From: Bdellovibrio sp.
Lineage (GTDB): Bacteria; Bdellovibrionota; Bdellovibrionia; Bdellovibrionales; Bdellovibrionaceae
Assembly: GCA_036676395.1 (NCBI GenBank)
Contig: JAKFCY010000002.1
Span: 1,792,001-1,856,000 of the forward strand
DNA: 64,000 nt
Direction of reading: 5' to 3'
The notes under the pieces were generated by a model that saw only the letters and a list, made by a program, of their open reading frames with translations, was not told the origin of the DNA and ran no database searches. How positions within the stretch are numbered: position 1 is the stretch's first letter; each line of letters starts with the position of its first letter. Below are positions 1,340 to 22,779 of the stretch, in pieces. The position numbers were made by a program, and so were the translations under genes.

Positions 1340-3030
1340 AAAGCCTCCATAACATAGCCCACATTAATGTAGTGCCCTGAGTGTGAAACGGTATTTACGC
1401 TGGAGCTGTTTGAGCCTTTAAATTCATGCTCGCTATTTTTAAAAAGATAGCCAATTTCAAAACGATCATTACTGCCTGCACGGTTAAATAAAGCATTAAT
1501 TGAATAATCAATGCTTTCGCCTTTTTCTAAGGTTTGATCCTGAGACTTAGTCAGTTGATAAACTGGTTTTAAATAGCCCACGCGAAAATCGACCGCATAC
1601 TGGTCTAAATAATTATATTGCAAGCTTGCATTCAAAAAAACATTCAATAAATGCTGCGAATAGATATTTAACTGTGTCGCCGAAAGCGGATCAGTTGTTG
1701 CCTGAATAAGGCGATCTAACCCAAGGCCCCCATTTAATTTAATAATCTGTGGGTATGAATTATAGTATGAGTACTCTTGGCCAAAACGAAAGTCATAGAT
1801 CAATTCACCCTTATTCGGTAAATTAAAATAACCCAGATTTAATTTGTAATATTGATTTAAGCTATCGATAATGCCCGGATCATTTTTCGTATAAGAAAAA
1901 TTTAAAACCTGGCCACTGATATCTACGATCGAAGACTGTGACGGAAAATCTGATTTATAATCAATGCTTGAAGAAATTAAATTAAAATTGTGGTAATACT
2001 GGCGACTTTTGGCCTTTATAGTGTCACGGTAAAACTTGTTTTCTGCTACCAGCGTGCGATCACCTGCTTTAATCGAAAAATCAACACAAGCATCCGTCGA
2101 ATAAAGTTTGGCTTTAATATGGGATTTTACGCAAAAAGTGTATTCTCCACCCGCCCAAGATGACGGAACTCTAAAAGTTGTTGCATAAAAAGACGGAGCG
2201 CTAAATTTTTGCATTTCTAATGGATCAACGTTTTTTTGATACACGACAATAGCATATCTTTTAACATCCATCACTTTGTGCCAGCTGATTTCACGAACAA
2301 ACGTATTTGCCGGAGTAATTACGCGCGGACTAAATTTATCCTGTTCATAAACTTCTAGCGGCATAAGATTGGCCGCGATAATTTTATTTTGCGCATTGCG
2401 AGCCACAACTTTTAACATATAAGAACCAGACTCTAAGCCTTTAATTTCAGTTTCAGCGGTTTTAAGATCTGTTAAAACCTGCTCTGGTGCTTCACTGAAT
2501 ATTTTGCTTTTTTTGAAATCGCGTGTAGAGCTTAGTGGGTTTATCTCAAAACGTTCAGTCTGATAAACAGAAAGCACATAAGAAGCTGCATCACTGATCG
2601 GAGTCCATTGTAAGAAGGCTTTATTCTGGTTTTGTAAATCTTTGCTAATACCAGCCACATGGCCATCAAGATTTACTAAAGTGATTTTATAATCTTCAAT
2701 TACGAATGAACTAAATTCGCTCCAGTTAGACTCTGTCTCATCAGCAAAAGAAATTTTAAAACGAAAACGATAACGCCCTTTAGCAAGATATTCTTGCCAT
2801 TGAGGCGTAGCCTGTTCAAAACTCATTACAGCCCCACGAGCTGGATGGATTTCGACGATATATTTTTTGGCGTTAGGTTCAGCCTTAAAATTTAAAGCCA
2901 CCTTACGCTTCATCTCAACATCAACTCTTTCAGTCATATACTTAGAATTCGCCAGCGCCGGCAGCGATACAAATAGTCCTAAAATCAAAATAAATGTTTT
3001 TGCACTAATTTTTGATTTCAACATTTTCAA
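1336..3030 (-). CDS. Exported protein with FN3-like repeats and probable C-terminal beta-barrel
   Basis: Signal peptide (…VSLPALA). Repeated 'W..(V/I)..A..Y...(V/I)…G.Y…V' FN3-like units. Alternating aromatic beta-strand pattern at the C-terminus (…GHYINVGYVMEAL). Confidence 0.55.
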   Translation of the reverse strand: MKMLKSKISAKTFILILGLFVSLPALANSKYMTERVDVEMKRKVALNFKAEPNAKKYIVEIHPARGAVMSFEQATPQWQEYLAKGRYRFRFKISFADETESNWSEFSSFVIEDYKITLVNLDGHVAGISKDLQNQNKAFLQWTPISDAASYVLSVYQTERFEINPLSSTRDFKKSKIFSEAPEQVLTDLKTAETEIKGLESGSYMLKVVARNAQNKIIAANLMPLEVYEQDKFSPRVITPANTFVREISWHKVMDVKRYAIVVYQKNVDPLEMQKFSAPSFYATTFRVPSSWAGGEYTFCVKSHIKAKLYSTDACVDFSIKAGDRTLVAENKFYRDTIKAKSRQYYHNFNLISSSIDYKSDFPSQSSIVDISGQVLNFSYTKNDPGIIDSLNQYYKLNLGYFNLPNKGELIYDFRFGQEYSYYNSYPQIIKLNGGLGLDRLIQATTDPLSATQLNIYSQHLLNVFLNASLQYNYLDQYAVDFRVGYLKPVYQLTKSQDQTLEKGESIDYSINALFNRAGSNDRFEIGYLFKNSEHEFKGSNSSSVNTVSHSGHYINVGYVMEAL

Positions 3031-4783
3031 CCTGCGGCGTGATAATTCCCTCTTTAGTGACGTTGTAATCCGTCGGAGGAATCAGTTTAACAGAGACACC
3101 TTGTTCAATTTGCGCATTCTGACTTGCGGGCAAACGGCCTTTTGAAGAACTATTAGGCTGTAGATTTTGACTTTCAAAGTAATTAGTCAATTTTCTGTCT
3201 TCTACATGAAACTTCACCTGATAGTAATCAGTTGCCAGACCTTTTAGATTTAATTTATCACCTTTATTAAGAATACCTTTTTTAACAACTTTGTTATCTG
3301 TCGCAAGCACTTCAAAGTGATAATCATACAATGATGAAATTGATTTCGGATCAACATTTAAACTGTATTCGCGATCTGTGATAATTTCTTTCTTTTTAGT
3401 TTTTTCATGTTTTGCAAAAGTTAACAGTTGTTTAGGTGAACGTTTCGAAAGTTTAATTTCGTACTCTAAAGTTTTGCCTAAAATCTGCATTTTATTATTA
3501 AACGGCTCAATTTTTACTTTAACCGGCGTTGCCGTATCAATTTTTACATTTAGCTCTTCGCTATCAACGAAAATACTTTCTTTGACTTGTGAAAGTTCGC
3601 CTGATTTAGCTTCTTGTAAATAGATTAAAGTGACTTTGTATTTGCTGACTGGCCATCTCGAATTTTTCTGCCATTGTAAATGCAGTACCGGATCACGGTA
3701 ATAAAACTGTTCAACTTCCGTTGTTTCGTGCCAAGAAACAACATCAGAATCACTTTGGGCAATCGGGGCAAAATAAAATGCACGCGACTCACTATATATA
3801 GAATGATCTTCATTAAGCACGCGCCAGTAATAGAAACCAAATTCAGACGGCTTATAGGCCAGCTGATTCCTGTTGCCAGCAAACATCTCAGCGATCATTT
3901 GATTGTTTTTAAAAATTTGTACTTTAACTTTATCTACATTAGCCGCTTTTGACCATTTTAAGATAAAGTCGTCAGGGTTAATCACATTATTAATAACTTC
4001 TTTGTGCTCTGGATAAATTAAGTTAATTTTAGATTGAAATTCGTTTTTCCAAAAATTAATGGCGCCAGCTTCTAGAACTGCTTCATTTTCTTTAACAACG
4101 GCTTGCCAGAAAAATTGCGTCATTGTCCAGTCTTCTGAAAAGCCACCCGCTTCAAACGGGTAAGTTTTAACAAGTTGTAAATTGTTTTTTTCAGCACCTG
4201 CCCAAAATTCAACCCAGCGATTTTTTACTGTATCATCTGCTAACCATTTAACTTCAAGCTTAGAACCTTGCTCTTTCGCATTCAGAGCAACCCCATTTAA
4301 TTTAAAAATTGAATTTTGATCTGGTGACATCGGACCTTGCATCGCCATTTCACCAAATTGACCTGAGTCATTTTGTTCAAATAGATTTACAGCTGCTGCT
4401 GCCTTTGTTGTTAATGCGACAACAGAGCCTTTGCTGACGTAAAATTCGACTTTATCTGAATTCTTTTTAACGATCACATCGCTATAGGGTAAAATTCTAA
4501 ACTTATGTTTGCCGATCTCTAACACTGTCGATACTTCAAGTGTTTTGATGCTGTCATTAGCCAGAACGATTTGTCCATGCATGGCTAATGTGCCAGATAA
4601 TGATTGCGCTTTTTTAATAAGTACTGGTTCACCATCAGTGATCAAATAACCTACGACTTCTAACGCATGGTTTGTGGCTTGTTTACTTAGGTAAAAATTA
4701 GATAATTGAAAAGCGGCACCGCATACTGATGCAGTGGCCATAAAAATATATAAAAAGCTTTTCACGTTTTTGTAGAAGAACAC
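3005..4783 (-). CDS. FecR-like N-terminal domain plus FN3/Ig-like repeat protein
   Basis: N-terminal TM, FecR-like segment (NDSIKTLEVSTVLEIG…YVSKGSV), Trp-containing FN3-like repeats. The track starts it at TTG 4801; the in-frame GTG 4783 is preferred because of the promoter position. Confidence 0.5.
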   Translation of the reverse strand: MFFYKNVKSFLYIFMATASVCGAAFQLSNFYLSKQATNHALEVVGYLITDGEPVLIKKAQSLSGTLAMHGQIVLANDSIKTLEVSTVLEIGKHKFRILPYSDVIVKKNSDKVEFYVSKGSVVALTTKAAAAVNLFEQNDSGQFGEMAMQGPMSPDQNSIFKLNGVALNAKEQGSKLEVKWLADDTVKNRWVEFWAGAEKNNLQLVKTYPFEAGGFSEDWTMTQFFWQAVVKENEAVLEAGAINFWKNEFQSKINLIYPEHKEVINNVINPDDFILKWSKAANVDKVKVQIFKNNQMIAEMFAGNRNQLAYKPSEFGFYYWRVLNEDHSIYSESRAFYFAPIAQSDSDVVSWHETTEVEQFYYRDPVLHLQWQKNSRWPVSKYKVTLIYLQEAKSGELSQVKESIFVDSEELNVKIDTATPVKVKIEPFNNKMQILGKTLEYEIKLSKRSPKQLLTFAKHEKTKKKEIITDREYSLNVDPKSISSLYDYHFEVLATDNKVVKKGILNKGDKLNLKGLATDYYQVKFHVEDRKLTNYFESQNLQPNSSSKGRLPASQNAQIEQGVSVKLIPPTDYNVTKEGIITPQVENVEIKN

Positions 4784-9700: not shown

Positions 9701-10327
9701 ATGAAAACTTTATTCTCTATACTTATCGCTACCCTAGTTTTATCAACGGCAAACGCCCAAACTAAAACGGCATCTGCGACCACAAATACTGCCAAGACAG
9801 CAAAAACGGAGACCAAAAAAGTGGAAAAATACAATCCAGAAACATGTGCATTTCCTAAAGATGACGATGCTTTAAAAAAATTATTAACTCCTGAACAGTA
9901 CGCAATCACGAAAAAAAATGGCACTGAACGCCCGTTTGATAATGCATACTGGAATAATCACCACCCCGGTATTTACGTAGATGTGATTTCAAAAGAACCG
10001 TTATTTTCTTCAAAAGATAAATTTGAATCTGGTTCTGGCTGGCCAAGTTTTACCAAACCTATCGATAAAGGTGTTGTTGTTGAAAAATCTGATTCTGCAC
10101 ATGGTATGGACCGCGTAGAAATTCGCTCAAAACGTGCCGATTCACATTTAGGCCACGTATTTACCGATGGACCAAAAGATAAAGGCGGCCTTCGTTACTG
10201 CATGAATTCAGCCTCATTAAGATTTGTGCCTTTAGAAAAACTAAAAGATGAAGGTTACGAAGATTATCTGAAGTTATTCACCACTAAAGAAATCACGGAT
10301 GCGAAAGCGCACCCGTTTAAGCCGTAA
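9701..10327 (+). CDS. msrB: Peptide-methionine (R)-S-oxide reductase with signal peptide
   Basis: [24 protein letters not shown] and RYCMNSASL motifs; N-terminal signal peptide (…STANA). Confidence 0.95.
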
Positions 10328-10332
10328 AAAGT

Positions 10333-13300
10333 TTATTCCCAATCAAGCAGAACTAAACGACCGTCTGGAGTTAAAGCCACCTGACGGGCTTCTTGCACCA
10401 AGGCTGTATCGCGATCAATAGCTTTAGCGCTCTGTAATGAGGTCACCCGTGTTTGATCATTCGAGCGTTTGGCGATCTCTGGCGCGATTTTAGTGAATTT
10501 ATCCCAGACCGCTTGTAATTCAGTGAGTTCTTTTTTCTGACTATCAGTAGGAGTCTTAGTCGCTTTTAAAGAGAACAACCGATCTTCGACTTCATTTAAA
10601 GTCATTTTAATCGGAACTCTTTCATTCACGATATATTCAAAGTTTTTACCATGATCAAAAACTTTGACGACATCTAATCCTGGAATGCCTACGTACTTAT
10701 CACGCGTCTGAACGTAAGTTTGAAAAAAGTCTTTTCCACTTTTTTGGCCAGATACCCCAGTTGTTAAAAACGGAAGTCTAACTACTTTGTTAGGATCTTT
10801 CATTGCATATAAATTTGAAGTATTACCCGCACCAATATAATCGCCCAACTCAAAACTTTCAACCTTACCACTTTGCGCAGAGGTGGCCTGAACGACATCA
10901 CCTTTTTTAAGGCCTGAAAGTACATTATCGTACTGTGATCGTTTAAAATTGATTTGTCTTTCAACTTGCCATGCATTTAATCTAGATGGCTCTAAAAGTT
11001 TTTGATCAGCTAAATTGACAATCACCGGGTCTTTGATTGCAGCTGGAGTACGCTCTAAATTTTTGTATTCTAATAATAATTTAGTGGCATTGCCTTTTAC
11101 ATCATAATGTACAGAATTGGTAACATCTTTGTTTTTTAACCAGCCCGCAAACGCTGGATCATTTTTATATCTTTTTAAAAATTCGACCACTTCAGGTGCT
11201 TCTGCTTTTTCGTTATCAGAACGTTTTGCAATATTAACTAACAAATAATCTAACGAAGCTTGTGAATGACGTTGATCTAATTTTGCGGCGTCAGCGGCAG
11301 CTAAAGTTGCAGTCCGGGGCGGTGCCAGTTTAAATTCTTTAAATGGATCGCCGTGCAGGCTTTCTTCATGGCGTAACATTTTCTCCATGGCACCAGCCAC
11401 ATCTTCTGCCGGTGAATCGTTAGTTAAAACGATTTTTTTATCCTGGTAACGTAAGGTCATTTTTTTTATTAAACCATTACTGTCTTTGGCGATAATTACA
11501 TTCTGTTGAATAAAATCATTTTGCTTTTGTAGGCGCACTATAGCCCCACCCACAAAATGACTAAGTTCTGTTTGCTGGGTTTTAGAAAATTGCGGGCTCG
11601 TCGCTGCATGCTGCTGTAAAGCTTCTAATTGGCTCATTGTTTTTTCAGGGTTTCCGATTAACATCTCATGCGGAAGCTGTAACCCTTTATTCGGGGGCAC
11701 GCCGATTTCACGAATTGCTGTTTTTGGATTGGCCGCCAGAGGAGCACCGCCCAATTCATAGAAAATTTTATCGATGCCACCACGAGTGCCCTGGCTTAAA
11801 CGATCAAATGTTGAATGCACAATTCCTGCCGGAGATTGCGGAGCTGGATATCTGGGAACTACAACTCCATTAATAACTTGATCAGTAGCAAAAACAGAAT
11901 CAGCAAAAAGCAATTTAGCTTTTGGATGTTTGGCATTACCTAATGAAGTTGGAACAATATTATTTGATAAAAAACTCCAATAGCCTTCATTCGGTCCATT
12001 ATGACCTAAATTTGCTAAGATGCGTTCGCGAAATTGATTTTGCGTAATATGACCGGCATTTAAATCGCGAATCGCTAACTGCATACCCGGTAATTCGTGC
12101 AAATAGCCCCGAAGCACCGGCACTTCAGCAATGATTTCTCTGACTTCTTGATTTGTTAAATTAGGATTCAACAAATTCGGGTGCGGAAAACCCAGATCTT
12201 TCAAAACCGTTTTTAATTCTTGCGCTGCCGGAGTTTTCACCGTTCCGCGAAGAGTATCAAATAATTCCTCTGATTCTTTGGTGTTTTTTAAAAGTAAGTT
12301 TTCTTGAAACTTTGCAAGTTTACCTACATCAGAATCAAGCATACCGAATTTTAAACCTTGATAATCTACTCGGGCTTTATCTAAAACCTTAGCCACTACT
12401 GGATTTCGAGTGGCGGCAATTAAATCTTCCTGATGTAAAATTGATTTTACTTCTTTAGGAGACAAATCTGCACCTCTTAAAGCCTCGACATAACGATCAA
12501 CTTGCGCTTCTAACTCGGGTGTTGATTTAGAGATACCTGAATGGACTGCCTTTAATTCAACGGGTAATGCCGCACTAGGCGCAGCCATAGCCGAAGGTGC
12601 TGAAGTGCTTGCTGGTATTCGCTGTGTTTTTTTGAACTTTTCAGGATCAATGATTTGTTTTGGATTTTGAATTAAATCATCCACTGTTAAATCAGCCTGA
12701 TCATCTATTTTTTGAAATCCCTCTTTGCCTATCACGGCTTCAATATCATTTTTTAATCCGTATTTTTGTACAATATGTTGTTGCTGTTTACGAATCACCA
12801 ATAGTTCTAATTCTTTATTTTTATTACCATAGCGTTTTACACCGTAAAGAATGCGGTCATACTCGTAACCTAAATTATGATATTGATCCAGAGCCACTTT
12901 TTTGACGTCTTCGGCTGCATTAGATTTTGTTTTAGCTAACACCGATTTTTGCGTCGCCATGTGCGCAAGCTCAGTGTTATCTGATATAAATCCAGCCTTA
13001 ATAGCCGCTTTTGTATTTACTTCGCTGGCCCAGAAACTTTTTGCCGTGCTTCCAAGATTATTTTCGATCGTTTCAGCAGTAAGACGGTAATAAGGCAGCG
13101 CTAAGTCGACATCACCTGATTTTAGAAAGTCATTGGCTACATTTGAAGAAATGCGCGCAAAGTTTTCTGGTTGAAATTCACGATCTGCGCGGCTTAACCG
13201 GTTAACAATCTGACGTTGCTTTTCAATAACCGGAGTTAAGGGGTGCCCAGAAGTTAATTCAGCAGTGCTACGAAGCCCCATTGAACGGCCTCTGATGCCG

Positions 13301-16300
13301 ATCACGCTATCAAGCTCTTCAACCAATGAATTTGTAGATGTATTTGATGAACTTAAAGCCTGCGCTTTCACGCGATCTGTTGCCGGATTTCTTGCTACAC
13401 CTTTAGCTTCAACAACTTGAAAAACACTTTCGCCGTTTAAAGGCGGCGCAGGTTTTGGTACCCCCACTTTAGTGCGAAGTTCTGTTAAATAAGCTTTATC
13501 GTAATCTAGACGACTTTGAGCATTTAATAATTTAATTTTTTCTTCTCGAGAAAATTCGCGCAATTGTCCCATCGCTTCGCTGCGTGACATATTTACGGGC
13601 GTTGAAAAAGATAAGTGCACAGGGCCATTTTTGCCTTCAACATTATTTAAAGTGATTTGCCAGACCGTAAAGTTTTTATCTCCAGAGCGGCCAACATCTT
13701 TCGCAACAATTGAACCCAGTGACTCATCAACTTGATCTAAGGCATCACGTGAATCATTAATAAATGCTTGTCTGCGATCAACGCTTGTTTGCATATTAGA
13801 AATATCGCGCTTAACAGCTCTATTGGGAATTCCGGGCTTACCCGCTTTGCTTTGCGCAATTACCGTTTGTTTATCGACTGCAAAATTAACTGTAGCGGCT
13901 TTGATTTCATCAAAACTAAAACCCTTACCATAACCTTGCGCTGATAATTCTTTACTGATTGATTGCACAGCTAAATCACCGCGCGCGCGATCTGTTTTAG
14001 TGTGCGACACTTCATGCAGTAGCGTTGAAAAGCGAGCATCCGTATCATAATCGATATTAATATAAACTGCGCCTTCAGGAGTTGTAACCCCAGCACTATT
14101 AGCCAGTAATGGGTTACTGGCATCGTCATAGATGACTTTAGTTTTACCTTCAACCTTAAGACGTGCTTTACGACGTAAATCTGCTAATTGCCCTTCATTG
14201 CGTGCATTTTTAAAATCCTCATCAATTTGCGAACGCAGTGCCAGTGGATCCTTACTTCGAGACGATTCAACTTTAACACCCACATAGGCAGAATTTGAAT
14301 CACCTAGTTCACGGTCAGTCATTTTTTTAAAGCTAGTGCTGCCATCTTTATTCACAACACCAACAGTGTAAATGATTTCGCCTTTGATTTTATCGCGACC
14401 TACAACTATGCCCTCTTTGACTTTATCACCAATACCTGCGGTCACGACATAATCACCGGTTTTTAGCTGCGCCAGCGGCTTCACAATAATCGGTGTCACT
14501 GGTAAATTAGTGACCGATGCTGGCGAACGAATAATATTTTGTGCCAAAGCTAAATTCTCTAAGCCTTTAATACCGCCCCGGCGATAGGCTTCAAACACTG
14601 CGTTTGAAGTTACGCCACTGCGGCGGGCTAATTCAGACAATGCAGAATGAGTTTCAGCATTTAAATCTGGCTTATCGACAGAGCGGCCTTTACCTACAGC
14701 ATCTTTAGCTGCACGATGGCCTTCATCTAAGATTTGTTGCAACTCTGAATTTGATTTACTTTGATAAGTTGCACTTCGTTCGCGATCAGCTTTTACTTTT
14801 TTCAAAGCTTCAGGAGTATTTGTGGCTAATAGTTGATCTTGGGTTAAATGAATTTGGTTAGAAATACCTGCTTCATCTAAGTATTCAACAACGTAAGTTT
14901 TAGCTAAACCAGGTTTTGCTTCAAGCTGTGATAACACACGACCCTGGCGCAATTCGCCATTTCCTAATGGAACCACGATATCTGGATTTTGTTTTTTATC
15001 TTTAGACACCAATAACGGAGAATCCGGAGTGGTATCAATACTAGGCGCCACTTCACGTTTTATAACAGGGGGTTTACTTCCCCATTCGCGCGTGATTTTG
15101 GCATTTGTTGTATCTTCTAAATCTGTCTTATAGATAATAGTTTCTTTGCCGTTAACTTCACGCAGTAAGTAGCCACCATTTTTTGCTGGTCCGGCGATAA
15201 CACCTTCAAGTTCACCCGTGCCGTTAAATTCGCTGATCAGAACTTTATCACCGACACGTGCATTGCTGACATCAACGGGAACAGCTTTTTTAGCCACGGC
15301 AGCAACAATTGGAGCGCGTTCTAACGAAAGCTCTTCAGCGTTGGCAATAAACCGGGCATTCGGGTTACGTGTGATTTGTGCATTAGTTAAATCATCTAAA
15401 TCATTTTTATAAATAATTGTTTCTGCGCCATTGGCTTCGCGTAAGATTAACCCACCATTATGAGCATCTCCTGCAATTGCACCACGCAACTCACCGGTTC
15501 CGTTAAACTCGTGAATCACGACTTGATCGCCAATACGTACTTCGCTTGGGGTGACTTTGATCAATTGTGAAATTTCTGACGAGTTATTACCAGTAATACC
15601 TTTGCGTAATAAAAGCGTAGCTTCCGAATTTGAAAAACCAGCTTTACGTAAAATTGCTGTTTTTTCTTTAAGTTCTTTAGCGGTGTAATCAAAATAGCCG
15701 CGCCCTTCGCCGCCCACATTATGTGAAGCTAAAACAGCATTTTTCTGTGCGTCGGTTAGCGGACGTTTTACGTAGTCGGCAGCAGCCTTAACCCGTGATG
15801 GATCATCTAAATCTCCATTCACTTTTAATTCAGCTGTTAAGCCGCGATAAAATTGCGATTCACTGGTCGCTTGCGCTCCCAAATTAATTTCTTTACCTTG
15901 CGAATCTTTAACTCGAATTGTGCCATCTTTGTTTCTACGAATAAACTTAGCATCTAAATCTGCGCCACCACCGCCGGCCAAGGCTTCAAAGTTTTTCACA
16001 GTGACTTGATCACCGGCGCGAGCCATCTCTGGTTTAATTTTAACTTGTGCGACCACTTCATCACCACGAGCAGCAAAGGCAGAAACCTTGTTGCTAATAA
16101 TACGCGGAGGCACAACTGCCTCTAAACTTTGACGATTAATAGTCTCTATAGTGGGGTTAACTTGACGTGCGTACAACGGCGCGCGGTCAGTGTATTTATT
16201 TAATAACCGACGCTCTGATAAAGATAATGTCGAACCATCAATATCTGCTTTTTGCACCGCTTTTACAAATTTTTCTGCATTAGAAAATTCGGCATTACCA

Positions 16301-19300
16301 ATATAACCGCCACGAGGGTTATAACTCATGCTTTGGCGTAACATTTCGGTATCGAAATCTTTTTTACCCGGAAACAACTTATCAAATAAGGCCGTAGATT
16401 CTTTTTTCGAACCGACAGAAGCATAATCAAGAGCAGCAGCTTTATTTTCGTTATAAATTCCCAGTTCGCGCGCCACGCTTTCACGTTGACGGGGATTTAA
16501 ACGTGAACTTTTAAGACGATCTTGTTCGGCTAAATAATCTAATTGATTTCTGGCATCACCAGCCACTTCAGCTGGATCAATAGCTCTTACGCTAATTGGC
16601 GCCGAATCCGCGCTAGCGGTTTTTCTGATGACTGCTGAATCTACTTCTAAGCTTTGACGCGGAAGTAACGCCACATCCGCATTAGTTTGACGTGCATACA
16701 ATGGCGCACGATCAGTAAATTTATTTAATAAGCGACGTTCAGCTAAGGATAAATTAGCGGCGTTAACATCTGCATTTCTTACCGCTGCAACGAATTTTTC
16801 GGCATTGGCAAATTCGCGGGCATTGATATATCCACCACGCGGATTAAAACTCATTGTCTGACGCAATAACGTGTCATCAAAGTCATTACCATTCGGAAAC
16901 AACTTCTTAAACAATTCACGAGTTTCTTTACGCGAAGCGACCGCCGGATAATCCATCGCTGCGATTTTATTTTCATCTGCAATACCTAATTCAAGTGCTG
17001 CATTTTGGCGTTGTTTTGGGTTTAAATTTAAAGTTTTTAAGCCATCTTGTTCTGCTAAATAATCTAGTTCATTACGAGCACCACCAGCTTGGGCCGAATT
17101 AAACACATCCGCTTGGCTTGCATCTGTGCTCTTGGCTCTGACCTGAACTTGCGGTTTAGCTTTACGTGCTAATTTAACTTCTTCATAAAGCTCATTTACT
17201 TCTTTATTTTGGCGTTTGGCTAATTCTTCTAAGGCTCGTTGACCTTCGATATCAATCTTTTTGCTTTTTAAAGCTTTATCAGGCTTACCTGAAACACCGT
17301 AATCGACATTATAAGCATCACGCCCGCCGCGAGAATCGGCTTGGCGAAGGCTATCATCTAAAATTTGTTCAAGCTCTGCTGATGAACGATCTGCAAAACT
17401 AGCACGTCTGGCTTCACGAATTTTTGCCTGACGCACAGCTTGTGGCGTATTGGCTTTTTTTAGTTCAACTTCATTCATGCGCACGACAGTTGCTGTTTTT
17501 CCCGGAGGATAAATCTCAACTTCGTATTGGCCTTTGCCATTTGGACCACTAATAACTTTACCTGGATAAGAAACATCTTTTCCAACCACAGGCACATTAA
17601 TTATTGGGTTGTCAATTTTACCTGGTAGTTTTACGTTCGCTGCCGTTAGTTCAGCTGCCGTTTTACGTGTGCGCCCGATACCTGCACCCTTTTGATAAAA
17701 TTCAACTTCATAATACCCGCGCGCATCCGGGCCACTCATCACCGCGCCTGGATTTGTGCGTCCGGTATTTCCCATCGGAACTTCAAGTTGTTTACCTTTG
17801 ACGATTTCAAATTTTGGAATTGCCGCTTGTTCTGCAACAATGCGCACATTATCTAAGCCGGGGCTTCCGGTTACACCTTTACGTAATAAAAGACTGGCTT
17901 CATCTTCACTTAGACCTGCATCGCGTAGTGCTTTAGCTTTTTGACGAAGTTCAGTTTTACTTAAAGCAAAAATCCCTTTGTCATCGGCGATCTTATGCGA
18001 TTTAAGAACTGCTTGTTGCTGGGCTGCAGTCAGTGGTCTTTGTAAATAACCCTCTGCCACCCTTACACGGGCTACATCATCAGCAATTTCTAAGTTTTGT
18101 TTAACTTCTGCAGTTAAACCACGCGAAAACTCAGCATCTTTGACTTCAGCTTTAACTAAATCAAATTCTTTACCGGCTTCATCCTTAATACGTACAGTGC
18201 CGTCAGTGTTTTTTCTGACTACACTGGCATTAAGATCTGATCCGCCCTCAAAGTTTTTAACGTTAACGGCATCACCAGGACGAATAAATTCTTCTTTTAA
18301 TTTTACTTTTTCAACGACTTCAGCTGAGTCCGCTTTCGTCAGCGACGGTGCTAAACGTTCTGCAGATTTAACTTCATCGCGAAGCAAATCAAACTCTTTA
18401 CCATTGCTATCACTAACGCGCAGTAAGCCATTTTCTAATTTTTTAACAATTTTAAATTCGGCATCTTTGCCGCCTTCAAAATTAGAAACTTTAATTTGCT
18501 CACCTTCGATGAACCGCACATTATCGCTCTTATCAACATAAGTCGTTGGCCTGTTATCGGCCTTCACATTTATTTGCGGAGTAGAGCCTGAGCCTGCGCC
18601 ACTGTTTGATTTAAAAATTGAAACTGGTTCAGGCTTAACTTTTGCAAAACTGGTTACAGGAGCAACAGCACCAGTGTTGTTATTAGAAGTTAAAGCTCTG
18701 ACTAATTCATCTTCAGCAGCCGTCGAGGGTACATTTTGTGTGAATGATTCAGATGCCGGAGAGCGGCCTGAGCCTTTTTGAATATTATTTACAGGTGCTG
18801 CATTGCCAAAATTTTGCATATCAACTTGTGCAACGACAGGCTGAGTACGTTGCATAACCGGTTGGGTTACAACCGCTTGCGCAGCTGCGACTGGACGGCT
18901 GGGTGCCGCGGCGACGGCCATTGCACTATTGTTCGTACTACCACTGCGCATATCAAGGGCCGCAGATTTTTGCAAATAATCTCCTGTTCCTGCAGCAGAA
19001 TTCATTGTTTTTGCAGGCTGCGGAATAACTAGTTTATTTTGTGCAACGGCTTGATCAGCTTTAAATTTGCCACTTAGAAATTCATAAAACTGATTATCGA
19101 GCTGAGATTTAATCTCTGGGTTTGTTTGATATAATTCTTGTGCCTGTATTCTTCTTGAACGCATGCTGCCATCACGGTGCTGATAGGCCACTTCAGCCAT
19201 TGCCCCCTGAGGAGTCTGATGCAATTTAGTTACAGTTCCTTGAATAACTTCGCCAGTTTCATCCGAAATTCTTACAGCAGCATCTTTACCAGCTACACTA

Positions 19301-21489
19301 TGCATTGCTGCAACCGTAGAGTTAGTCGCTGTTTTTCCTGAATTGCCGATTCGCCCTGCTGTTCCGTCTGTTTTAGCAATTGAAGAATCAACTACGGGTA
19401 CTTTTGGTCGTGCAGTTTGTACAGTATCAAAAAAAGCCATATTTGCATTTTCATTTGCAGTTAAGTCTTTATTAGGAACGACGACTGTATCGGTATTTGG
19501 CTTATCCGTAGTAGGTACTGGCTTATCAGCAACCACGGCAGGTGTAACCTCTGAATCCGCAGAAGTTGCCGGTGATTTATCGGCAGCCACAACTGGTTTA
19601 TCAGCATTAGGTTTCGTTGTATCAGGTTTTTCAGCATTAGTTTTTTCAGGAGGAGTTTTCGCGGCCGTATCGGTTGTAGTTGGCTTTTTAGTATTAGGGT
19701 TAGTTTTTGCCGTTGTAGTTGCAGGTTTATCTGCCGGTTTATCTTTTGGTTTTTCTTCTGGTTTTGTAGCCGCTTGCTGAGCTTTCTGCGCTGGTGTTGG
19801 CGTCGCAGGAGTTTGAACTGTTGGCGCTGCATTTGATGAAACTGTTGGAGGAGTTGGTGCACTCGGTGTTGCTTTCAAACCACGAGCTAACAACGGTGCT
19901 GCGGCACCAACAAATGGCAATACATCAACTCCAGCTAATAAGGCGTCAACCTTACATGAAGTATCAAGTTCACGGGCAATCGTTACTTGTGATTTTGCGT
20001 TATCACAGACCATATTTTTTTGTTTATCTTTTACAGATAAATTATCTAAAATAGCTGTGTTTTTATTTGTACATGATTTATAGGCCTGTTTCATACTGCC
20101 TTGAGCAAAGTAACCATCAACAGCTAGGGTTCCGGCAAAAGCCCCACGGCGTGTAGCGATTGCGGTTTTACTTAAACCACCGATAACTTTAGCACCTACA
20201 GCTATAGATCCTAATCCAGCTGTCAAAACAGTTAACCCAGCATCTAGTGCGGCATTATCAACAATATTTTTTGTACCGGCACGATCTTCACCGCGATCTA
20301 ACAAACAACTTTCGGCATCAAAATAAGTTTTAAATTCCATGTTGCTGCGACGGTCTGCTAATTGCGGCACTGCCGGCGAATCAAGTTTTGCTAATTCAGT
20401 TCTAACTTTGGCAAAATCACATTTTTCGCCTTTATCATCAGTGTCATAAATTAAACATCTTAAATTTTGTAAATTGTCTTTATAAGCTCCAGATAAAGCT
20501 GTGCGATTAGCTTTTAACTGTTCACGCAGGCCTTCTTTAATTTTTTCGCGACTTAAATATTTTCTTTCTGATGATCTTGGTCTTACTTTTTGACGTGCGA
20601 TTTTATCAAAGATTTCACCACGCACCCAAGGAACTTCATCTCGAAGAATTTCGATGGCTTTAGTGATGTTTTCACATTTTATAGCGGCTGTTTTTTGCGA
20701 AGTGTAAGTAAACCCGCCGCGCATAGGGCAGTCTTTTGTTGAACCCGCGCATTTAACCATTGAACCTGATCTACATTTTAGTTCGGCATCTTGAAGTGCA
20801 CTGATCTTACCCAGATTATCCATCGTCTTTTGCACTTGTTCTTCAAAACGATCTGCGGCTTGCCCTTTACACTGCCCGCCAGCATTACGTAAATTTTCAC
20901 AGTTGGTTTTTAAATCCGGAAGTAACGGATTACACTCGATGCCATTAAGCACAGGCGTACCTTCAGTCACAGAATCAATAAATGCAATTTCATCAATCGC
21001 TGATTTATTAAATTTTTCAATGCGCGTTGCTGCTGCATAGAAACGCGTTTGCGCAACTTTTGCTTGTTCTGGAGATAAATCAGCAGAAGTGTTACATCCG
21101 TTTAACGTGCGCGCCATGCTTGGAGAAATTGTTGAAGAAAATTGTTTGCTTAATTCTGCGCTTAACGCCTGTGGAGTTTGAAAATTAGTTTGAACGCCAT
21201 TGCCGCTCATGTAGTTTTGATAAGCTGTTACATATCCGTTACAAGTTTTTGCTTCAGAATCAAATTTAAAAACTATTAATGTCGATTTATCTTGGTAATC
21301 ATCTAACACTGATTCTTTAAGCGCTATCGGACATTTTCCTTTTTTTAATTGCACATCAGATTCAGCTGAAGACGTTTTTTTGTTTGAACTTGACGAAGTT
21401 TTTCCGCCGCCAGAAGTTTCAGGCCCGGCAAAAGAAAATTGAGAATTAAAAATCAGTGAAAATATGACTAAAAAATGTATAGCGCGCAT
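10333..21489 (-). CDS. Giant (3718 aa) exported multidomain repeat protein, candidate multi-effector toxin
   Basis: Uninterrupted 11.2-kb ORF. Signal peptide, Cys-rich N-terminus, Gly/Ala hydrophobic segments, P/T/K linker, internal repeats, HEVSH, HD-like and kinase-like C-terminal modules. The ORF is secure; the function is inferred. Confidence 0.85.
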   Translation of the reverse strand: MRAIHFLVIFSLIFNSQFSFAGPETSGGGKTSSSSNKKTSSAESDVQLKKGKCPIALKESVLDDYQDKSTLIVFKFDSEAKTCNGYVTAYQNYMSGNGVQTNFQTPQALSAELSKQFSSTISPSMARTLNGCNTSADLSPEQAKVAQTRFYAAATRIEKFNKSAIDEIAFIDSVTEGTPVLNGIECNPLLPDLKTNCENLRNAGGQCKGQAADRFEEQVQKTMDNLGKISALQDAELKCRSGSMVKCAGSTKDCPMRGGFTYTSQKTAAIKCENITKAIEILRDEVPWVRGEIFDKIARQKVRPRSSERKYLSREKIKEGLREQLKANRTALSGAYKDNLQNLRCLIYDTDDKGEKCDFAKVRTELAKLDSPAVPQLADRRSNMEFKTYFDAESCLLDRGEDRAGTKNIVDNAALDAGLTVLTAGLGSIAVGAKVIGGLSKTAIATRRGAFAGTLAVDGYFAQGSMKQAYKSCTNKNTAILDNLSVKDKQKNMVCDNAKSQVTIARELDTSCKVDALLAGVDVLPFVGAAAPLLARGLKATPSAPTPPTVSSNAAPTVQTPATPTPAQKAQQAATKPEEKPKDKPADKPATTTAKTNPNTKKPTTTDTAAKTPPEKTNAEKPDTTKPNADKPVVAADKSPATSADSEVTPAVVADKPVPTTDKPNTDTVVVPNKDLTANENANMAFFDTVQTARPKVPVVDSSIAKTDGTAGRIGNSGKTATNSTVAAMHSVAGKDAAVRISDETGEVIQGTVTKLHQTPQGAMAEVAYQHRDGSMRSRRIQAQELYQTNPEIKSQLDNQFYEFLSGKFKADQAVAQNKLVIPQPAKTMNSAAGTGDYLQKSAALDMRSGSTNNSAMAVAAAPSRPVAAAQAVVTQPVMQRTQPVVAQVDMQNFGNAAPVNNIQKGSGRSPASESFTQNVPSTAAEDELVRALTSNNNTGAVAPVTSFAKVKPEPVSIFKSNSGAGSGSTPQINVKADNRPTTYVDKSDNVRFIEGEQIKVSNFEGGKDAEFKIVKKLENGLLRVSDSNGKEFDLLRDEVKSAERLAPSLTKADSAEVVEKVKLKEEFIRPGDAVNVKNFEGGSDLNASVVRKNTDGTVRIKDEAGKEFDLVKAEVKDAEFSRGLTAEVKQNLEIADDVARVRVAEGYLQRPLTAAQQQAVLKSHKIADDKGIFALSKTELRQKAKALRDAGLSEDEASLLLRKGVTGSPGLDNVRIVAEQAAIPKFEIVKGKQLEVPMGNTGRTNPGAVMSGPDARGYYEVEFYQKGAGIGRTRKTAAELTAANVKLPGKIDNPIINVPVVGKDVSYPGKVISGPNGKGQYEVEIYPPGKTATVVRMNEVELKKANTPQAVRQAKIREARRASFADRSSAELEQILDDSLRQADSRGGRDAYNVDYGVSGKPDKALKSKKIDIEGQRALEELAKRQNKEVNELYEEVKLARKAKPQVQVRAKSTDASQADVFNSAQAGGARNELDYLAEQDGLKTLNLNPKQRQNAALELGIADENKIAAMDYPAVASRKETRELFKKLFPNGNDFDDTLLRQTMSFNPRGGYINAREFANAEKFVAAVRNADVNAANLSLAERRLLNKFTDRAPLYARQTNADVALLPRQSLEVDSAVIRKTASADSAPISVRAIDPAEVAGDARNQLDYLAEQDRLKSSRLNPRQRESVARELGIYNENKAAALDYASVGSKKESTALFDKLFPGKKDFDTEMLRQSMSYNPRGGYIGNAEFSNAEKFVKAVQKADIDGSTLSLSERRLLNKYTDRAPLYARQVNPTIETINRQSLEAVVPPRIISNKVSAFAARGDEVVAQVKIKPEMARAGDQVTVKNFEALAGGGGADLDAKFIRRNKDGTIRVKDSQGKEINLGAQATSESQFYRGLTAELKVNGDLDDPSRVKAAADYVKRPLTDAQKNAVLASHNVGGEGRGYFDYTAKELKEKTAILRKAGFSNSEATLLLRKGITGNNSSEISQLIKVTPSEVRIGDQVVIHEFNGTGELRGAIAGDAHNGGLILREANGAETIIYKNDLDDLTNAQITRNPNARFIANAEELSLERAPIVAAVAKKAVPVDVSNARVGDKVLISEFNGTGELEGVIAGPAKNGGYLLREVNGKETIIYKTDLEDTTNAKITREWGSKPPVIKREVAPSIDTTPDSPLLVSKDKKQNPDIVVPLGNGELRQGRVLSQLEAKPGLAKTYVVEYLDEAGISNQIHLTQDQLLATNTPEALKKVKADRERSATYQSKSNSELQQILDEGHRAAKDAVGKGRSVDKPDLNAETHSALSELARRSGVTSNAVFEAYRRGGIKGLENLALAQNIIRSPASVTNLPVTPIIVKPLAQLKTGDYVVTAGIGDKVKEGIVVGRDKIKGEIIYTVGVVNKDGSTSFKKMTDRELGDSNSAYVGVKVESSRSKDPLALRSQIDEDFKNARNEGQLADLRRKARLKVEGKTKVIYDDASNPLLANSAGVTTPEGAVYINIDYDTDARFSTLLHEVSHTKTDRARGDLAVQSISKELSAQGYGKGFSFDEIKAATVNFAVDKQTVIAQSKAGKPGIPNRAVKRDISNMQTSVDRRQAFINDSRDALDQVDESLGSIVAKDVGRSGDKNFTVWQITLNNVEGKNGPVHLSFSTPVNMSRSEAMGQLREFSREEKIKLLNAQSRLDYDKAYLTELRTKVGVPKPAPPLNGESVFQVVEAKGVARNPATDRVKAQALSSSNTSTNSLVEELDSVIGIRGRSMGLRSTAELTSGHPLTPVIEKQRQIVNRLSRADREFQPENFARISSNVANDFLKSGDVDLALPYYRLTAETIENNLGSTAKSFWASEVNTKAAIKAGFISDNTELAHMATQKSVLAKTKSNAAEDVKKVALDQYHNLGYEYDRILYGVKRYGNKNKELELLVIRKQQQHIVQKYGLKNDIEAVIGKEGFQKIDDQADLTVDDLIQNPKQIIDPEKFKKTQRIPASTSAPSAMAAPSAALPVELKAVHSGISKSTPELEAQVDRYVEALRGADLSPKEVKSILHQEDLIAATRNPVVAKVLDKARVDYQGLKFGMLDSDVGKLAKFQENLLLKNTKESEELFDTLRGTVKTPAAQELKTVLKDLGFPHPNLLNPNLTNQEVREIIAEVPVLRGYLHELPGMQLAIRDLNAGHITQNQFRERILANLGHNGPNEGYWSFLSNNIVPTSLGNAKHPKAKLLFADSVFATDQVINGVVVPRYPAPQSPAGIVHSTFDRLSQGTRGGIDKIFYELGGAPLAANPKTAIREIGVPPNKGLQLPHEMLIGNPEKTMSQLEALQQHAATSPQFSKTQQTELSHFVGGAIVRLQKQNDFIQQNVIIAKDSNGLIKKMTLRYQDKKIVLTNDSPAEDVAGAMEKMLRHEESLHGDPFKEFKLAPPRTATLAAADAAKLDQRHSQASLDYLLVNIAKRSDNEKAEAPEVVEFLKRYKNDPAFAGWLKNKDVTNSVHYDVKGNATKLLLEYKNLERTPAAIKDPVIVNLADQKLLEPSRLNAWQVERQINFKRSQYDNVLSGLKKGDVVQATSAQSGKVESFELGDYIGAGNTSNLYAMKDPNKVVRLPFLTTGVSGQKSGKDFFQTYVQTRDKYVGIPGLDVVKVFDHGKNFEYIVNERVPIKMTLNEVEDRLFSLKATKTPTDSQKKELTELQAVWDKFTKIAPEIAKRSNDQTRVTSLQSAKAIDRDTALVQEARQVALTPDGRLVLLDWE
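15088..15541 (-). repeat. Two tandem ~58-aa SH3/KOW-like repeats in the giant ORF
   Basis: RIGDQVVIHEFNGTGELRGAIAG…ETIIYKNDLDDLTNAQITR versus RVGDKVLISEFNGTGELEGVIAG…ETIIYKTDLEDTTNAKITR. Confidence 0.85.
15590..18081 (-). repeat. Two dispersed ~72-aa helical repeats (about 15590-15807 and 17867-18081) in the giant ORF
   Basis: RPLTAAQQQAVLKSH…ELRQKAKALRDAGLSEDEASLLLRKGVTG versus RPLTDAQKNAVLASH…ELKEKTAILRKAGFSNSEATLLLRKGITG; each is preceded by a 'GD.V.VKNFE' beta module. Confidence 0.85.
16163..17079 (-). repeat. Two tandem ~130-aa repeats (period about 525 nt) in the giant ORF
   Basis: ARN(E/Q)LDYLAEQD…MS(F/Y)NPRGGYI…NAEKFV.AV…LSL.ERRLLNK(F/Y)TDRAPLYARQ occurs twice. Confidence 0.9.
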
Positions 21490-21562: not shown

Positions 21563-22759
21563 TTAGCTAGCGATTTTTTCTTTAACGATTTGCATAGGCA
21601 GTTTCATGAACAAATCCATCGGCAGAGCCTTAGAATATAACCAACCCTGAGCAAAGTAAGCGCCTAATTGCAATAAAGCTTCGCGCTCTTCAAGCGTTTC
21701 AACACCTTCAGCAATAATATCCATACCTAAAGCTTGCGCCATAAAGACCATAGACTTTACAACAGCTAAAACTTTTGGATCAGCGTTTATTTTTGAGACA
21801 AATGACTTGTCGACTTTTAGATAACTGACTGGCATTTGTGATAAATACTGTAAACTTGAGTACCCAGTACCGAAATCATCGATTGAAATGTGAAAACCTT
21901 TGTTTTTACATTGATCTAAAATCTCGATGGCAACGACTCCGTTCATCATCACACGTTCAGTAACTTCTAATTTAATATTTTTTGGAGCGACTTTGTGCTT
22001 CCATGTCAGTTTTTCCAGATCCACTAAAAAATCCGGATGCGTAAACTGGCGACCGCTCACATTGATACTCATAATAAAGTCATCACCAAACGCCGTTTTG
22101 ATCTTTTGAAAGTCTTGAAAACAACGTTCAAAAATCCAATGACCGACAGAAACCATAAGTGATGAATTTTCTAAGAAATCGATAAATTTATCCGGCTGAA
22201 TATATCCAATAACTGGATCTTTCCAACGGATCAAAGCTTCAGCTCCGACCACTGCACTCGTCTGCATATTGACGATGGGCTGATAAAACATTTCAAACTC
22301 TTGGTTGTTCAAAGCTTCTTGCAGACGATTTTCAAATTTCAGGTTTTCAAAACCATCCATAATCGTATCATCTGGGCTGACGATATCTTCATTGCCCTGA
22401 GCAACATGAGTCAGTGATGAATTGTTTTTACGTACGCGATTCATCATCACTTTTAATAATAATTGAACTAACTGGTCAGACCCTTGAAAACGCTCGATCA
22501 ATTGATCTTTAGTCACAACATTTAAAACTGTATCTTCAACAGCTTTAACAGAAGCCGAACGTGGTAAAGAATCAATTAATGACATCTCTCCAAAAATTTC
22601 GCCTTTTTTAATTTGTGTAAGTGGAACTACTTTTGAATCGATTTCCAGGTAGACAAGGACTTTACCGCTTTCTACAACGTACGCACAATCACCAGCTTCA
22701 CCCTGTTTAAATAAAACAGTGTCTTTCGCAATTGTAATTTGTTTTTTTAACGTACTCAT
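21563..22759 (-). CDS. cNMP-binding/EAL c-di-GMP phosphodiesterase (Bd1971-like architecture)
   Basis: cNMP domain (GEIFGEMSLIDSLPRSASV) followed by EAL (YQPIV, EALIRW, EVTE, DDFGTGYSSL, AEGVET, QGW). Confidence 0.92.
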   Translation of the reverse strand: MSTLKKQITIAKDTVLFKQGEAGDCAYVVESGKVLVYLEIDSKVVPLTQIKKGEIFGEMSLIDSLPRSASVKAVEDTVLNVVTKDQLIERFQGSDQLVQLLLKVMMNRVRKNNSSLTHVAQGNEDIVSPDDTIMDGFENLKFENRLQEALNNQEFEMFYQPIVNMQTSAVVGAEALIRWKDPVIGYIQPDKFIDFLENSSLMVSVGHWIFERCFQDFQKIKTAFGDDFIMSINVSGRQFTHPDFLVDLEKLTWKHKVAPKNIKLEVTERVMMNGVVAIEILDQCKNKGFHISIDDFGTGYSSLQYLSQMPVSYLKVDKSFVSKINADPKVLAVVKSMVFMAQALGMDIIAEGVETLEEREALLQLGAYFAQGWLYSKALPMDLFMKLPMQIVKEKIAS

Positions 22760-22779
22760 TAAGCTTCCTCGCAAACAAC

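Follow-up and report, generated by a model that had tools for sequence, protein, structure and literature searches.

The 64-kb window, by which we mean the whole 64,000-nucleotide stretch of Bdellovibrio sp. DNA that was analysed, contains a genuine gene of a predatory bacterium at 10333..21489. This gene is uninterrupted in nine near-full-length homologs and, as the earlier note had read it, is a minus-strand open frame for an exported protein of 3718 residues with a signal-peptide-like start (Table 1). It sits in a housekeeping neighbourhood that is syntenic among close relatives, with genes for SpoIID, an M14 peptidase, an SDR, a cNMP-EAL protein, msrB, uvrBC, tRNA synthetases and recG around it. 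The next gene downstream is msrB, convergent on the opposite strand and 6 bases away, and the same arrangement is found in qaytius, where msrB is 93% identical. The SpoIID and M14 carboxypeptidase genes, which we take to encode cell-wall enzymes, lie upstream in the same orientation as the giant gene and are conserved in qaytius, and a cNMP-binding EAL phosphodiesterase is another conserved neighbour. No transporter, activator, immunity gene or export/delivery machinery adjoins the giant gene, so the neighbourhood agrees with what the earlier note had said of it. A genome search places the gene in single copy, with no paralogs of the head or of the last two domains elsewhere in its own genome.

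Databases recognise almost nothing in the product. A Pfam search of the whole protein at E values up to 1 lists DUF7454 and a sub-threshold MreC and nothing else, the MreC barrel matching the protein's own small beta modules weakly (E 0.0014). No match was returned by NCBIfam or PADLOC, and no adhesin, anchor or cell-wall-binding family was found with Pfam and NCBIfam. No Pfam or NCBIfam model recognises the protein, whose architecture the earlier note had not recognised as a described system. Full-text searches of the literature, with passages of individual papers, returned no mention of either the protein or the family that it founds.

Table 1. Features of the giant gene and its product; residues are those of the protein and positions those of the window.
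Feature	Residues	Positions	Strand	Remarks or basis
Whole gene		10333..21489	-	ATG start, 3718 codons plus stop (3718 aa)
Signal-peptide-like N-terminus	1-21	21427..21489	-	Sequence and family alignment
Conserved ETSGG-type motif	22-29	21403-21426	-	Family alignment
Head	22-537	19879..21426	-	All-helical, 16 Cys, family-defining; AF2 model
Hydrophobic segment 1	414-440	20170..20250	-	Gly/Ala-rich; T423/G425 conserved
Hydrophobic segment 2	516-537	19879..19944	-	ALLxxxDxLPFVG type, then R/K
Low-complexity linker	538-975	18565..19878	-	A/T/P/K-rich, ~440 aa
Repeated modules	976-2400	14290..18564	-	Self-comparison
Small beta modules	~985-1045, 1063-1122, 1819-1880, 1978-2041, 2071-2134		-	Self-comparison
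Helical module B	1123-1211, 1882-1968		-	Self-comparison
Other repeat pairs	1235-1286/1297-1348, 1291-1436/2165-2305, 1468-1615/1643-1790		-	Self-comparison
HExxH region	2405-2690	13420..14277	-	Motif HEVSH at 2492-2496 (14002-14016)
Conserved region of no recognised fold	2691-2960	12610..13419	-	Homolog comparison
Domain X	2985-3400	11290..12537	-	Conserved His/Asp-rich, enzyme-like; PDE/HD-like fold lead
C-terminal domain	3420-3718	10336..11232	-	YKNDP, LGxFLGAGN, V(I/V)R(L/I)PF and ARQ motifs; LVLLDWE end

The protein begins with MRAIHFLVIFSLIFNSQFSFA, followed by GPETSGGG at residues 22-29. Of 33 aligned family members, 32 start with a hydrophobic stretch, and the other one is cut. Behind it lies the head, whose cysteine pattern is conserved across the family alignment. 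The structure prediction and fold search proposed in the earlier note gave an all-helical model from the 33-sequence alignment (pLDDT 72, pTM 0.71), confident at residues 50-410 and 464-528, with the latter packed onto the N-terminal part; Foldseek against the PDB found no significant fold match for it (none at E ≤0.001). Comparison with a library of viral folds met nothing but helical noise, at TM ~0.1.

Both Gly/Ala hydrophobic segments reported earlier are present, starting at residues 414 and 516, and the first falls in a low-confidence excursion of the head model (412-463). Their Kyte-Doolittle means are 1.89 and 1.63. By a crudely applied insertion-energy scale they sum to +4.1 and +6.0. 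Nine other open reading frames of the 64-kb stretch have any window at or below 3.0, and their lowest windows lie between -2.0 and +2.8, with the six of an aquaporin at 0.2 to 2.2. Arg or Lys follows segment 2 in most family members, and the segment-2 equivalent is not hydrophobic (sum 7 or more) in 11 of the 33, including L014 of the J-domain subgroup. Residues 400-560 had no BLAST match in the hydrophobic regions of P0124 and P0090, and when the head was compared by hhalign with the N-terminal parts of domain X proteins the probability was 0.3%.

A P/T/K linker and a chain of repeated modules had been noticed from the sequence, and both are borne out. The linker's 438 residues include 66 A, 51 T, 42 P, 39 V and 34 K, and within the repeats 1468-1615 and 1643-1790 are 63% identical (E 5e-49). 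Module B ends in a TG motif, is matched by no model and is common to 12 of 28 shorter family members. Related SH3-like modules of relatives pass the Pfam model KIF2A-like_1st at 31-48 bits, and module copy number differs among orthologs.

The three enzyme-like domains that the earlier note had described fared unequally: the HExxH motif proved to be conserved and domain X yielded a phosphodiesterase/HD-like lead, while the kinase-like lead at the C-terminus is weak. Of 17 near homologs, 15 retain the HExxH motif, as does P0020. No Pfam peptidase family matches the region, whose leads (phrog_13670 at E 6.6e-4 and LPD23 in the Atlas at a score of 0.85) lie below any reliable threshold; it is a possible zinc peptidase. 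Zincin metallopeptidases combine such a motif with a third zinc ligand in a characteristic fold. Together with the region that follows, it occurs in orthologs only, in 2 of 301 genomes with its own included.

Domain X has about 100 stand-alone homologs, and its conserved His/Asp set looks catalytic. Class I phosphodiesterase catalytic domains made up 13 of 50 rows in an unbiased fold search and 48 of 50 in a second look, which offers a phosphodiesterase/HD-like fold as a lead that rests on a low-confidence model of the tail (12-sequence alignment). At the sequence level domain X matched neither PDEase_I nor HD models, no HD dipeptide is evident (HN stands at 3163-3164), hhalign against an HD protein encoded in the window gave 1.2%, and a split domain X protein brought up nothing usable in the Atlas. 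By a simple rule, 46 of 59 examined stand-alone homologs have a signal-peptide-like start, about 30 of them directly ahead of the domain.

In the C-terminal domain the LGxFLGAGN loop, the R/K in V(I/V)R(L/I)PF and the terminal DWE are conserved. Protein kinases are marked by a Gly-rich loop, a strand-3 Lys, a catalytic loop and a metal-binding Asp; in this domain an HRD-like loop is not apparent, its Foldseek hits (RIO, PknB and others) lie at E 0.18-0.5, and it is only weakly kinase-like. Signal-peptide-like starts are found in 12 of 16 stand-alone homologs of this domain, against 18 of 46 open reading frames of the window. Outside this protein, then, both domains are found immediately after a signal peptide or a lipobox-like signal. 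Neither structure model had a Foldseek match in the PDB at E ≤0.001, profiles of the two domains found nothing among PDB sequences, and Pfam on 38 and then 61 of their homologs gave only noise. A whole-family profile against PDB sequences reached at best E 0.0094, with a lectin over ~50 residues, which is not meaningful.

The head is a family in its own right, restricted to the Bdellovibrionota and previously undescribed, with the 3718-aa protein as its founding example and among its largest known members. Among 301 genomes of the class, 37 have it; the open frames that contain it run from 110 to 3790 residues and the tails from ~100 to 3200. Some tails bear GGDEF, J-domain-like or SH3-like modules: GGDEF in two members at E 1e-18 to 1e-19 with the motif intact, and J-domain-like ends with HPD in two or three. 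GGDEF and J-domain-like parts depend on a cytoplasm, in keeping with the cytoplasm-acting cargo that the earlier note had proposed. P0018 and P0019 share 69-73% identity in the head and carry an unrelated 300-aa tail.

The homolog search that had been suggested, for a conserved head with variable tails, therefore gives a divided answer: tails vary across the 37 genomes, while close relatives are colinear. The 16 near relatives, all of the Pseudobdellovibrio / "Bdellovibrio qaytius" group, are 55-93% identical, and ten keep the same C-terminal end. In the qaytius lineage (P0156-P0159) the gene is split just after the 2691-2960 region and the last domain is absent; P0013 also lacks it, and this absence is the sole C-terminal variation among close relatives. 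Full-length colinearity, named beforehand as evidence against a toxin, is seen among close relatives and broken by one lineage and by the family as a whole. Tails differ between old paralogous subfamilies and not between close strains, and the sequences support a conserved head module joined to variable tails.

The distribution of cysteines bears on where the tail resides. As had been counted from the sequence, all 16 lie early (53, 83, 132, 186, 197, 207, 239, 247, 254, 272, 345, 357, 395, 473, 495 and 512) and none follows. At the background of the 45 other open reading frames of at least 150 aa in the window (121 Cys in 15252 aa, 0.79%), the remaining 3206 residues should hold ~25 and hold 0 (P ~8e-12), and there is none beyond the head in 16 of 16 near homologs. 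In all 33 aligned heads the loop between the hydrophobic segments holds three Cys, and in 27 of 33 the N-terminal part holds an odd number; a disulfide is thus expected to span segment 1, which could then not be a single-pass anchor. Among the longer stand-alone domain X proteins, the Cys count before the domain is odd in 23 of 27 and exactly one Cys follows it in 25 of 27, a parity that places both sides of their hydrophobic segment in one oxidising compartment. Two columns of the module B alignment both hold Cys in 5 of its 15 rows and both lack it in the remaining 10, a pattern that a disulfide would give. The five rows are related to one another and may reflect one evolutionary event.

Cysteine parity, the module B pair and the low hydrophobicity of the segments speak against ordinary membrane anchors and imply export of the tail. 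Together with the Cys-free tail and the signal peptides of the stand-alone homologs, they make a tail outside the producer's cytoplasm the most likely arrangement. We propose, with a probability of about one half, that the giant gene product is a Sec-exported, prey-directed multi-module protein. A predator of the Pseudobdellovibrio / 'B. qaytius' group would export it through the Sec pathway; behind the signal peptide, a predicted all-helical head of ~500 residues, locked by about eight disulfides, would bear a hydrophobic hairpin rich in Gly and Ala and, further on, a helix of marginal hydrophobicity, and would be the membrane-interacting or anchoring part. A flexible linker, small beta-barrel and helical modules, the HExxH region, a phosphodiesterase/HD-like domain and a kinase-like domain would follow in that order, the entire tail lying outside the producer's cytoplasm and acting on the prey side, either where predator and prey meet or within the prey. 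As such it may be a weapon against prey. The analysis shows the architecture, the family pattern, the cysteine statistics and the signal-peptide-like starts of the stand-alone relatives of the last two domains; we infer from them the export of the tail, its enzymatic activities, any membrane insertion and any prey entry.

How far the tail would travel is a separate matter, and its delivery into the prey cytoplasm is a tentative proposal that we consider less likely than not. The corresponding view of the head, held with the same reserve, is of a self-contained delivery device, whose hairpin would enter the prey membrane and through which the Cys-free tail would be threaded without a dedicated secretion system. 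As cytoplasm-acting cargo this protein would carry a peptidase, a phosphodiesterase and a kinase-like enzyme, and its relatives a diguanylate cyclase or J domain. The proposal bears on the means by which Bdellovibrio-like predators, above all the epibiotic ones, which do not enter their prey, bring enzymes to the prey interior. It counts against export of the tail that a 400-kDa protein would have to cross the outer membrane, with no export or delivery machinery encoded nearby.

The main rival, which the earlier note had offered as its alternative and which is the default for the GGDEF-bearing relatives, is a receptor-like protein: the signal peptide would be cleaved off, the head would be a sensor or anchor in the predator's periplasm, segment 2 would span the inner membrane and the 3200-residue tail would be a cytoplasmic scaffold or signalling hub. 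A signal peptide, an outer domain, a hydrophobic segment and GGDEF are usually read as a receptor with a cytoplasmic tail. A GGDEF domain needs GTP and a J domain needs Hsp70, and the kinase-like domain would need ATP; the GGDEF and HPD-bearing J-domain-like tails, which stand behind the same head and segments, speak against export. The Arg/Lys after segment 2 is as expected beneath a membrane anchor, the Kyte-Doolittle means fall in a range often taken for membrane helices, and the conserved EAL neighbour counts in favour of a receptor. A single-pass protein would be expected to keep an apolar stop-transfer helix throughout the family. A cytoplasmic location does not, however, account for the Cys-free tail, nor for the covarying Cys pair in module B, the 11 of 33 members whose segment-2 equivalent is not hydrophobic, the parity in longer domain X proteins or the occurrence of the last two domains directly behind export signals. 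We consider a receptor unlikely, though more probable than any other alternative.

Less probable again is a protein that is exported and not delivered, a periplasmic or surface scaffold or adhesin, for example at the attachment pole, whose modules would bind the cell wall or prey surface and whose enzyme-like regions would act on the envelope or on released material, so that nothing reaches the prey cytoplasm. The many small SH3-like beta modules, their variable copy number and the long flexible linker would suit such a role, as would the SpoIID and M14 carboxypeptidase genes upstream and orthologs that are colinear and syntenic like those of a structural gene. GGDEF, J-domain-like and kinase-like modules, however, have no obvious extracytoplasmic role, Pfam and NCBIfam detect no known adhesin, anchor or cell-wall-binding family, and the His/Asp set of domain X looks catalytic. 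The MARTX or classical polymorphic-toxin build (CdiA, Rhs or MafB type) to which the protein had been likened can be set aside as very improbable: the likeness is general (size, a conserved N-terminal part, hydrophobic segments before enzyme-like C-terminal regions), whereas Pfam, searched to an E value of 1, detects no glycine-rich RTX repeat, internal cysteine protease domain (CPD), TPS, FHA, Rhs, PAAR, LXG or pre-toxin domain (PT-TG, PT-VENN), NCBIfam and PADLOC are silent, the signal is of the Sec type and not a C-terminal type I signal, and a single-copy gene with housekeeping surroundings and a convergent msrB downstream has no type I secretion genes, activating acyltransferase or immunity gene nearby.

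Set beside known systems, the proposed Sec-exported, prey-directed protein shares parts with several. MARTX toxins are marked by RTX-type repeats, a CPD, type I secretion genes and an activating acyltransferase; the protein resembles them as one giant polypeptide with several enzyme-like regions in a row, and differs in its N-terminal Sec signal, where they use type I secretion, and in having no rtx transport genes. Polymorphic toxin systems (CdiA, Rhs, MafB) were reportedly described by Zhang, Aravind and co-workers in 2012. The family is like them in its conserved N-terminal part with variable C-terminal modules, its great length and its hydrophobic and linker elements before enzyme-like C-terminal domains, but it has no known trafficking, repeat or pre-toxin domain and no immunity gene, and its orthologs are colinear at a housekeeping locus.

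Type VI effectors of the Tse6 type are reported to carry N-terminal Gly-rich transmembrane regions (Quentin 2018, Ahmad 2020). Marginally hydrophobic Gly-rich helices ahead of a payload that acts in the cytoplasm of another cell are our working analogy for segments 1 and 2. Unlike Tse6, this protein has no PAAR or prePAAR and no chaperone gene, and it starts with a signal peptide and a sizeable head rich in disulfides, features that type VI substrates are not known to have. Large polyvalent proteins of phages and conjugative elements, reportedly the subject of work by Iyer et al. in 2017, are similar in their strings of small unrelated domains and zincin-like peptidases, with the sub-threshold HExxH leads pointing to LPD23 and phrog_13670, yet here the gene is in a chromosomal core region, its product bears a signal peptide and no LPD family comes up with HMMER.

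Two family members show the exact order of parts of receptor-type diguanylate cyclases, with the GGDEF motif intact. They differ from such receptors in that the 'membrane helix' is marginal and its hydrophobicity is not conserved, the 3718-aa protein has no GGDEF, and the Cys evidence places the tails outside. Likewise, domain X is set apart from class I cyclic-nucleotide phosphodiesterases and the HD superfamily, which are marked by a helical fold around a His/Asp metal site, by the missing PDEase_I/HD sequence match and HD dipeptide, the likeness itself coming from a low-confidence model.

If delivery is true, the family would represent a new predator-specific class of modular toxins, a first handle on access to the prey cytoplasm and a new route of protein transfer between bacteria. 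Even on a cautious reading, four new domain families can be named. Through the family with one disulfide-rich head, domain X, the DWE-ending domain and module B, three more families without annotation, come together in one picture, and two of the three are common in the phylum in the form of small exported proteins.

All 16 cysteines of the giant protein lie within residues 53-512. The other 3206 residues have none, against about 25 predicted from the Cys frequency of the other 45 window ORFs of at least 150 aa (0.79%); P(0) is ~8e-12. The earlier note had described Cys confined to the first ~520 aa, an exported-type start, two hydrophobic segments, a linker and a chain of repeated modules, and each of these is borne out. 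The frame opens with ATG, and its N-terminus reads as a Sec signal peptide, with a single Arg, then 12 apolar residues, then SFA ahead of GPETSGGG. Both Gly/Ala-rich segments are present (Table), followed by a 438-residue A/T/P/K-rich stretch, true internal repeats up to 63% identical, and about 1400 unique residues. Pfam returned only two sub-threshold matches, both to small beta-barrel families, and NCBIfam none. A (G/S)E(T/L)(S/A)(S/T)GG-type motif directly behind the predicted signal-peptide cleavage site recurs in about 12 of 17 rows of the closer half of the aligned head family, and might serve in processing or sorting.

Table. Positions of the giant gene, its parts and adjoining features
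Feature	Window position	Strand	Residues of giant	Copies or size
Giant gene	10333..21489	-		3718 aa
Post-signal motif	21403-21426	-	22-29	
Head			22-537	
Segment 1			414-440	
Segment 2			516-537	
Repeat region: small beta modules				5 copies
Repeat region: helical module B				2 copies
Repeat region: further duplicated modules				3 kinds
HExxH region			2405-2690	
Domain X			about 2985-3400	
C-terminal domain			about 3420-3718	
Cyclic-nucleotide-binding EAL gene	21563-22774	-		
msrB	9701-10327	+		
Three successive large ORFs	2-4741	-		446, 562, 578 aa

Judged by its sequence relatives, the head forms a separate family. It was matched (query residues 1-560) in 37 of 301 genomes of the class, in open frames of about 110 to 3790 aa, mostly 750-1150 aa. 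Across 33 aligned heads, 17-93% identical, eleven Cys positions are kept in at least 90% and a T-x-G motif in segment 1 is conserved. An AlphaFold2 model from this alignment is all-helical (pLDDT 72, pTM 0.71), confident over 50-410 and 464-528 and not over 412-463, which takes in segment 1 and the helix behind it, or from 529 onward; Foldseek and an unbiased aligner found generic helical bundles at most for this fold. The tails differ. Two members, P0018 and P0019, carry heads 69-73% identical to that of the giant protein and an unrelated 300-aa tail, and a third, P0020 (2010 aa), combines head, Pro-rich linker and an HExxH region with intact motif with other beta modules and a different end. 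In a Pfam scan of the tails of 28 family ORFs, GGDEF was found in two (E 1e-18 to 1e-19, motif intact), DnaJ in three below the curated cut-off (HPD in two of these), KIF2A-like_1st SH3-like modules above cut-off in three, and no match in 19; module B lies directly behind segment 2 in 12. In both GGDEF-bearing loci, L026 (G150:C11) and L027 (G275:C6), a further GGDEF-like region, degenerate in sequence (NGADF / NGSDF), lies close to the C-terminal end.

The rear of the giant protein also has relatives that stand alone. Residues 2519-3718, used as query in a full HMMER search, matched 139 proteins, about 100 of them stand-alone relatives of domain X (420-760 aa, 26-43% identical) and about 18 of the C-terminal domain (250-490 aa), without a Pfam family in either set. 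In a phylum sample of 401 genomes, domain X occurs in 14 and the C-terminal domain in 48; the HExxH region was matched in orthologs only. Its motif is intact in 15 of 17 near relatives, and its other leads, all weak, are LPD23 clusters and a functionally uncharacterised phage family. Domain X has the invariant residues D, K, H, H, D, R, K and Q (61 sequences). Features of the C-terminal domain are a Gly-rich loop, an R/K strand motif and a terminal DWE, nearly all its stand-alone relatives ending, like the giant protein, in (L/V)DWE; its Foldseek matches to RIO, PknB and other kinases are weak (E 0.18-0.5). Two of its relatives, P0124 and P0090, lack a signal peptide and carry Gly/Ala-rich hydrophobic segments in the style of the head (D.P..L..IPYVG) ahead of the domain, with no similarity to the head by BLAST.

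Where the tail resides decides the mechanism, and we put its export at about two thirds, favoured by several features. The first is the Cys-free tail itself. The loop between the segments holds three Cys in all 33 heads and the count in the N-terminal part is odd in 27, so that a disulfide should cross segment 1, in agreement with the head model, which packs 464-528 onto the N-terminal part. Crude insertion-energy sums are +4.1 and +6.0 for the two segments, compared with 0.2-2.2 for the aquaporin encoded in the window; in the eight further ORFs listed, the lowest-scoring windows give -2.0 to +2.8. Module B has Cys at two columns jointly in five interrelated rows and at neither in the other ten. 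Finally, a simple rule finds signal-peptide-like starts in 46 of 59 domain X and 12 of 16 C-terminal-domain stand-alones, compared with 18 of 46 window ORFs. About 30 of the domain X proteins have this signal immediately ahead of the domain, in some cases in a lipobox-like form. Among 27 longer domain X proteins, 23 have an odd Cys count ahead of their own hydrophobic segment and 25 exactly one Cys behind the domain; in each of the four with even counts, a Cys falls within the apolar stretch at the N-terminus.

It is generally accepted that these predators use signal-peptide-bearing enzymes to act on the contents of their prey. We hypothesize, at even odds (about 0.5), that the giant protein is exported and acts on the prey side. 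Were the tails exported, modules of the GGDEF, J-domain-like and kinase-like kinds would be sensible only in another cell's cytoplasm, in line with the earlier proposal of cargo carried into a prey or competitor cytoplasm. That the head brings the tail into the prey cytoplasm is a bolder, separate step, which we consider less likely than not. A receptor-like protein with a cytoplasmic tail, somewhat less probable again, would accommodate the GGDEF and J-domain-like modules of relatives, the Arg/Lys right after segment 2 and the Kyte-Doolittle means of the segments (1.63 and 1.89), and is opposed by the features favouring export; segment 2 is non-hydrophobic in 11 of 33 members, one of them from the J-domain subgroup. 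A purely structural or adhesive role is slightly less probable still.

The conserved front and variable enzymatic rear most resemble polymorphic or multi-effector toxins, and Tse6-type effectors likewise have marginally hydrophobic helices before the payload. The giant protein lacks the hallmarks of MARTX toxins and of classical polymorphic toxins that were tested, which places it outside both classes. Large polyvalent phage proteins share the style of many small domains, with no more than weak leads to kinship. No mention of the protein was found in the part of the literature reached by full-text searches.

A whole-length search found 16 relatives at 55-93% identity. Two of them carry names, each annotated 'hypothetical protein', one from Pseudobdellovibrio sp. 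HCB154 and the other from Bdellovibrio sp. qaytius. All are colinear and keep the head Cys pattern, none has tail Cys, and repeated-module copy number varies (e.g. in the relatives P0009, P0011 and P0014). The qaytius gene is divided at a point just behind the counterpart of residue 2962, giving ORFs of 2870 aa and 450 aa; the stop of one and the start of the other share the sequence ATGA (L001, the qaytius record, 16595-16625), and the last domain is absent; another relative, P0013, also stops short of it. This looks like a coupled two-gene form and not a sequencing error, since the same short second ORF was found in four other assemblies (P0157-P0160).

The gene is single-copy in its genome, and, as noted earlier, it converges on msrB with no transporter or immunity gene, nor a chaperone, in its neighbourhood. 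Upstream lie genes for SpoIID, an M14 carboxypeptidase, a short-chain dehydrogenase and a cNMP-binding EAL protein, conserved with msrB at 81-93% identity in qaytius; the wider surroundings are housekeeping (uvrB, uvrC, cysS, gltX, carD, recG, lysS). The EAL gene, on the same strand across a 73-base gap, is 92% identical in qaytius with its position conserved, and its architecture, a cyclic-nucleotide-binding domain plus an EAL domain, is the one reported for Bd1971 (PMC6717892). Together with the GGDEF tails of relatives and the PDE-like domain X, it hints at a link to nucleotide signalling. The msrB product begins signal-peptide-like and has 60 extra residues ahead of its SelR domain, and is therefore probably an exported methionine sulfoxide reductase; in qaytius, too, msrB adjoins the giant gene (93% identity). 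Of the three successive large ORFs elsewhere in the window, all without a Pfam match at E <=1e-4, at least two begin signal-peptide-like by the simple rule.
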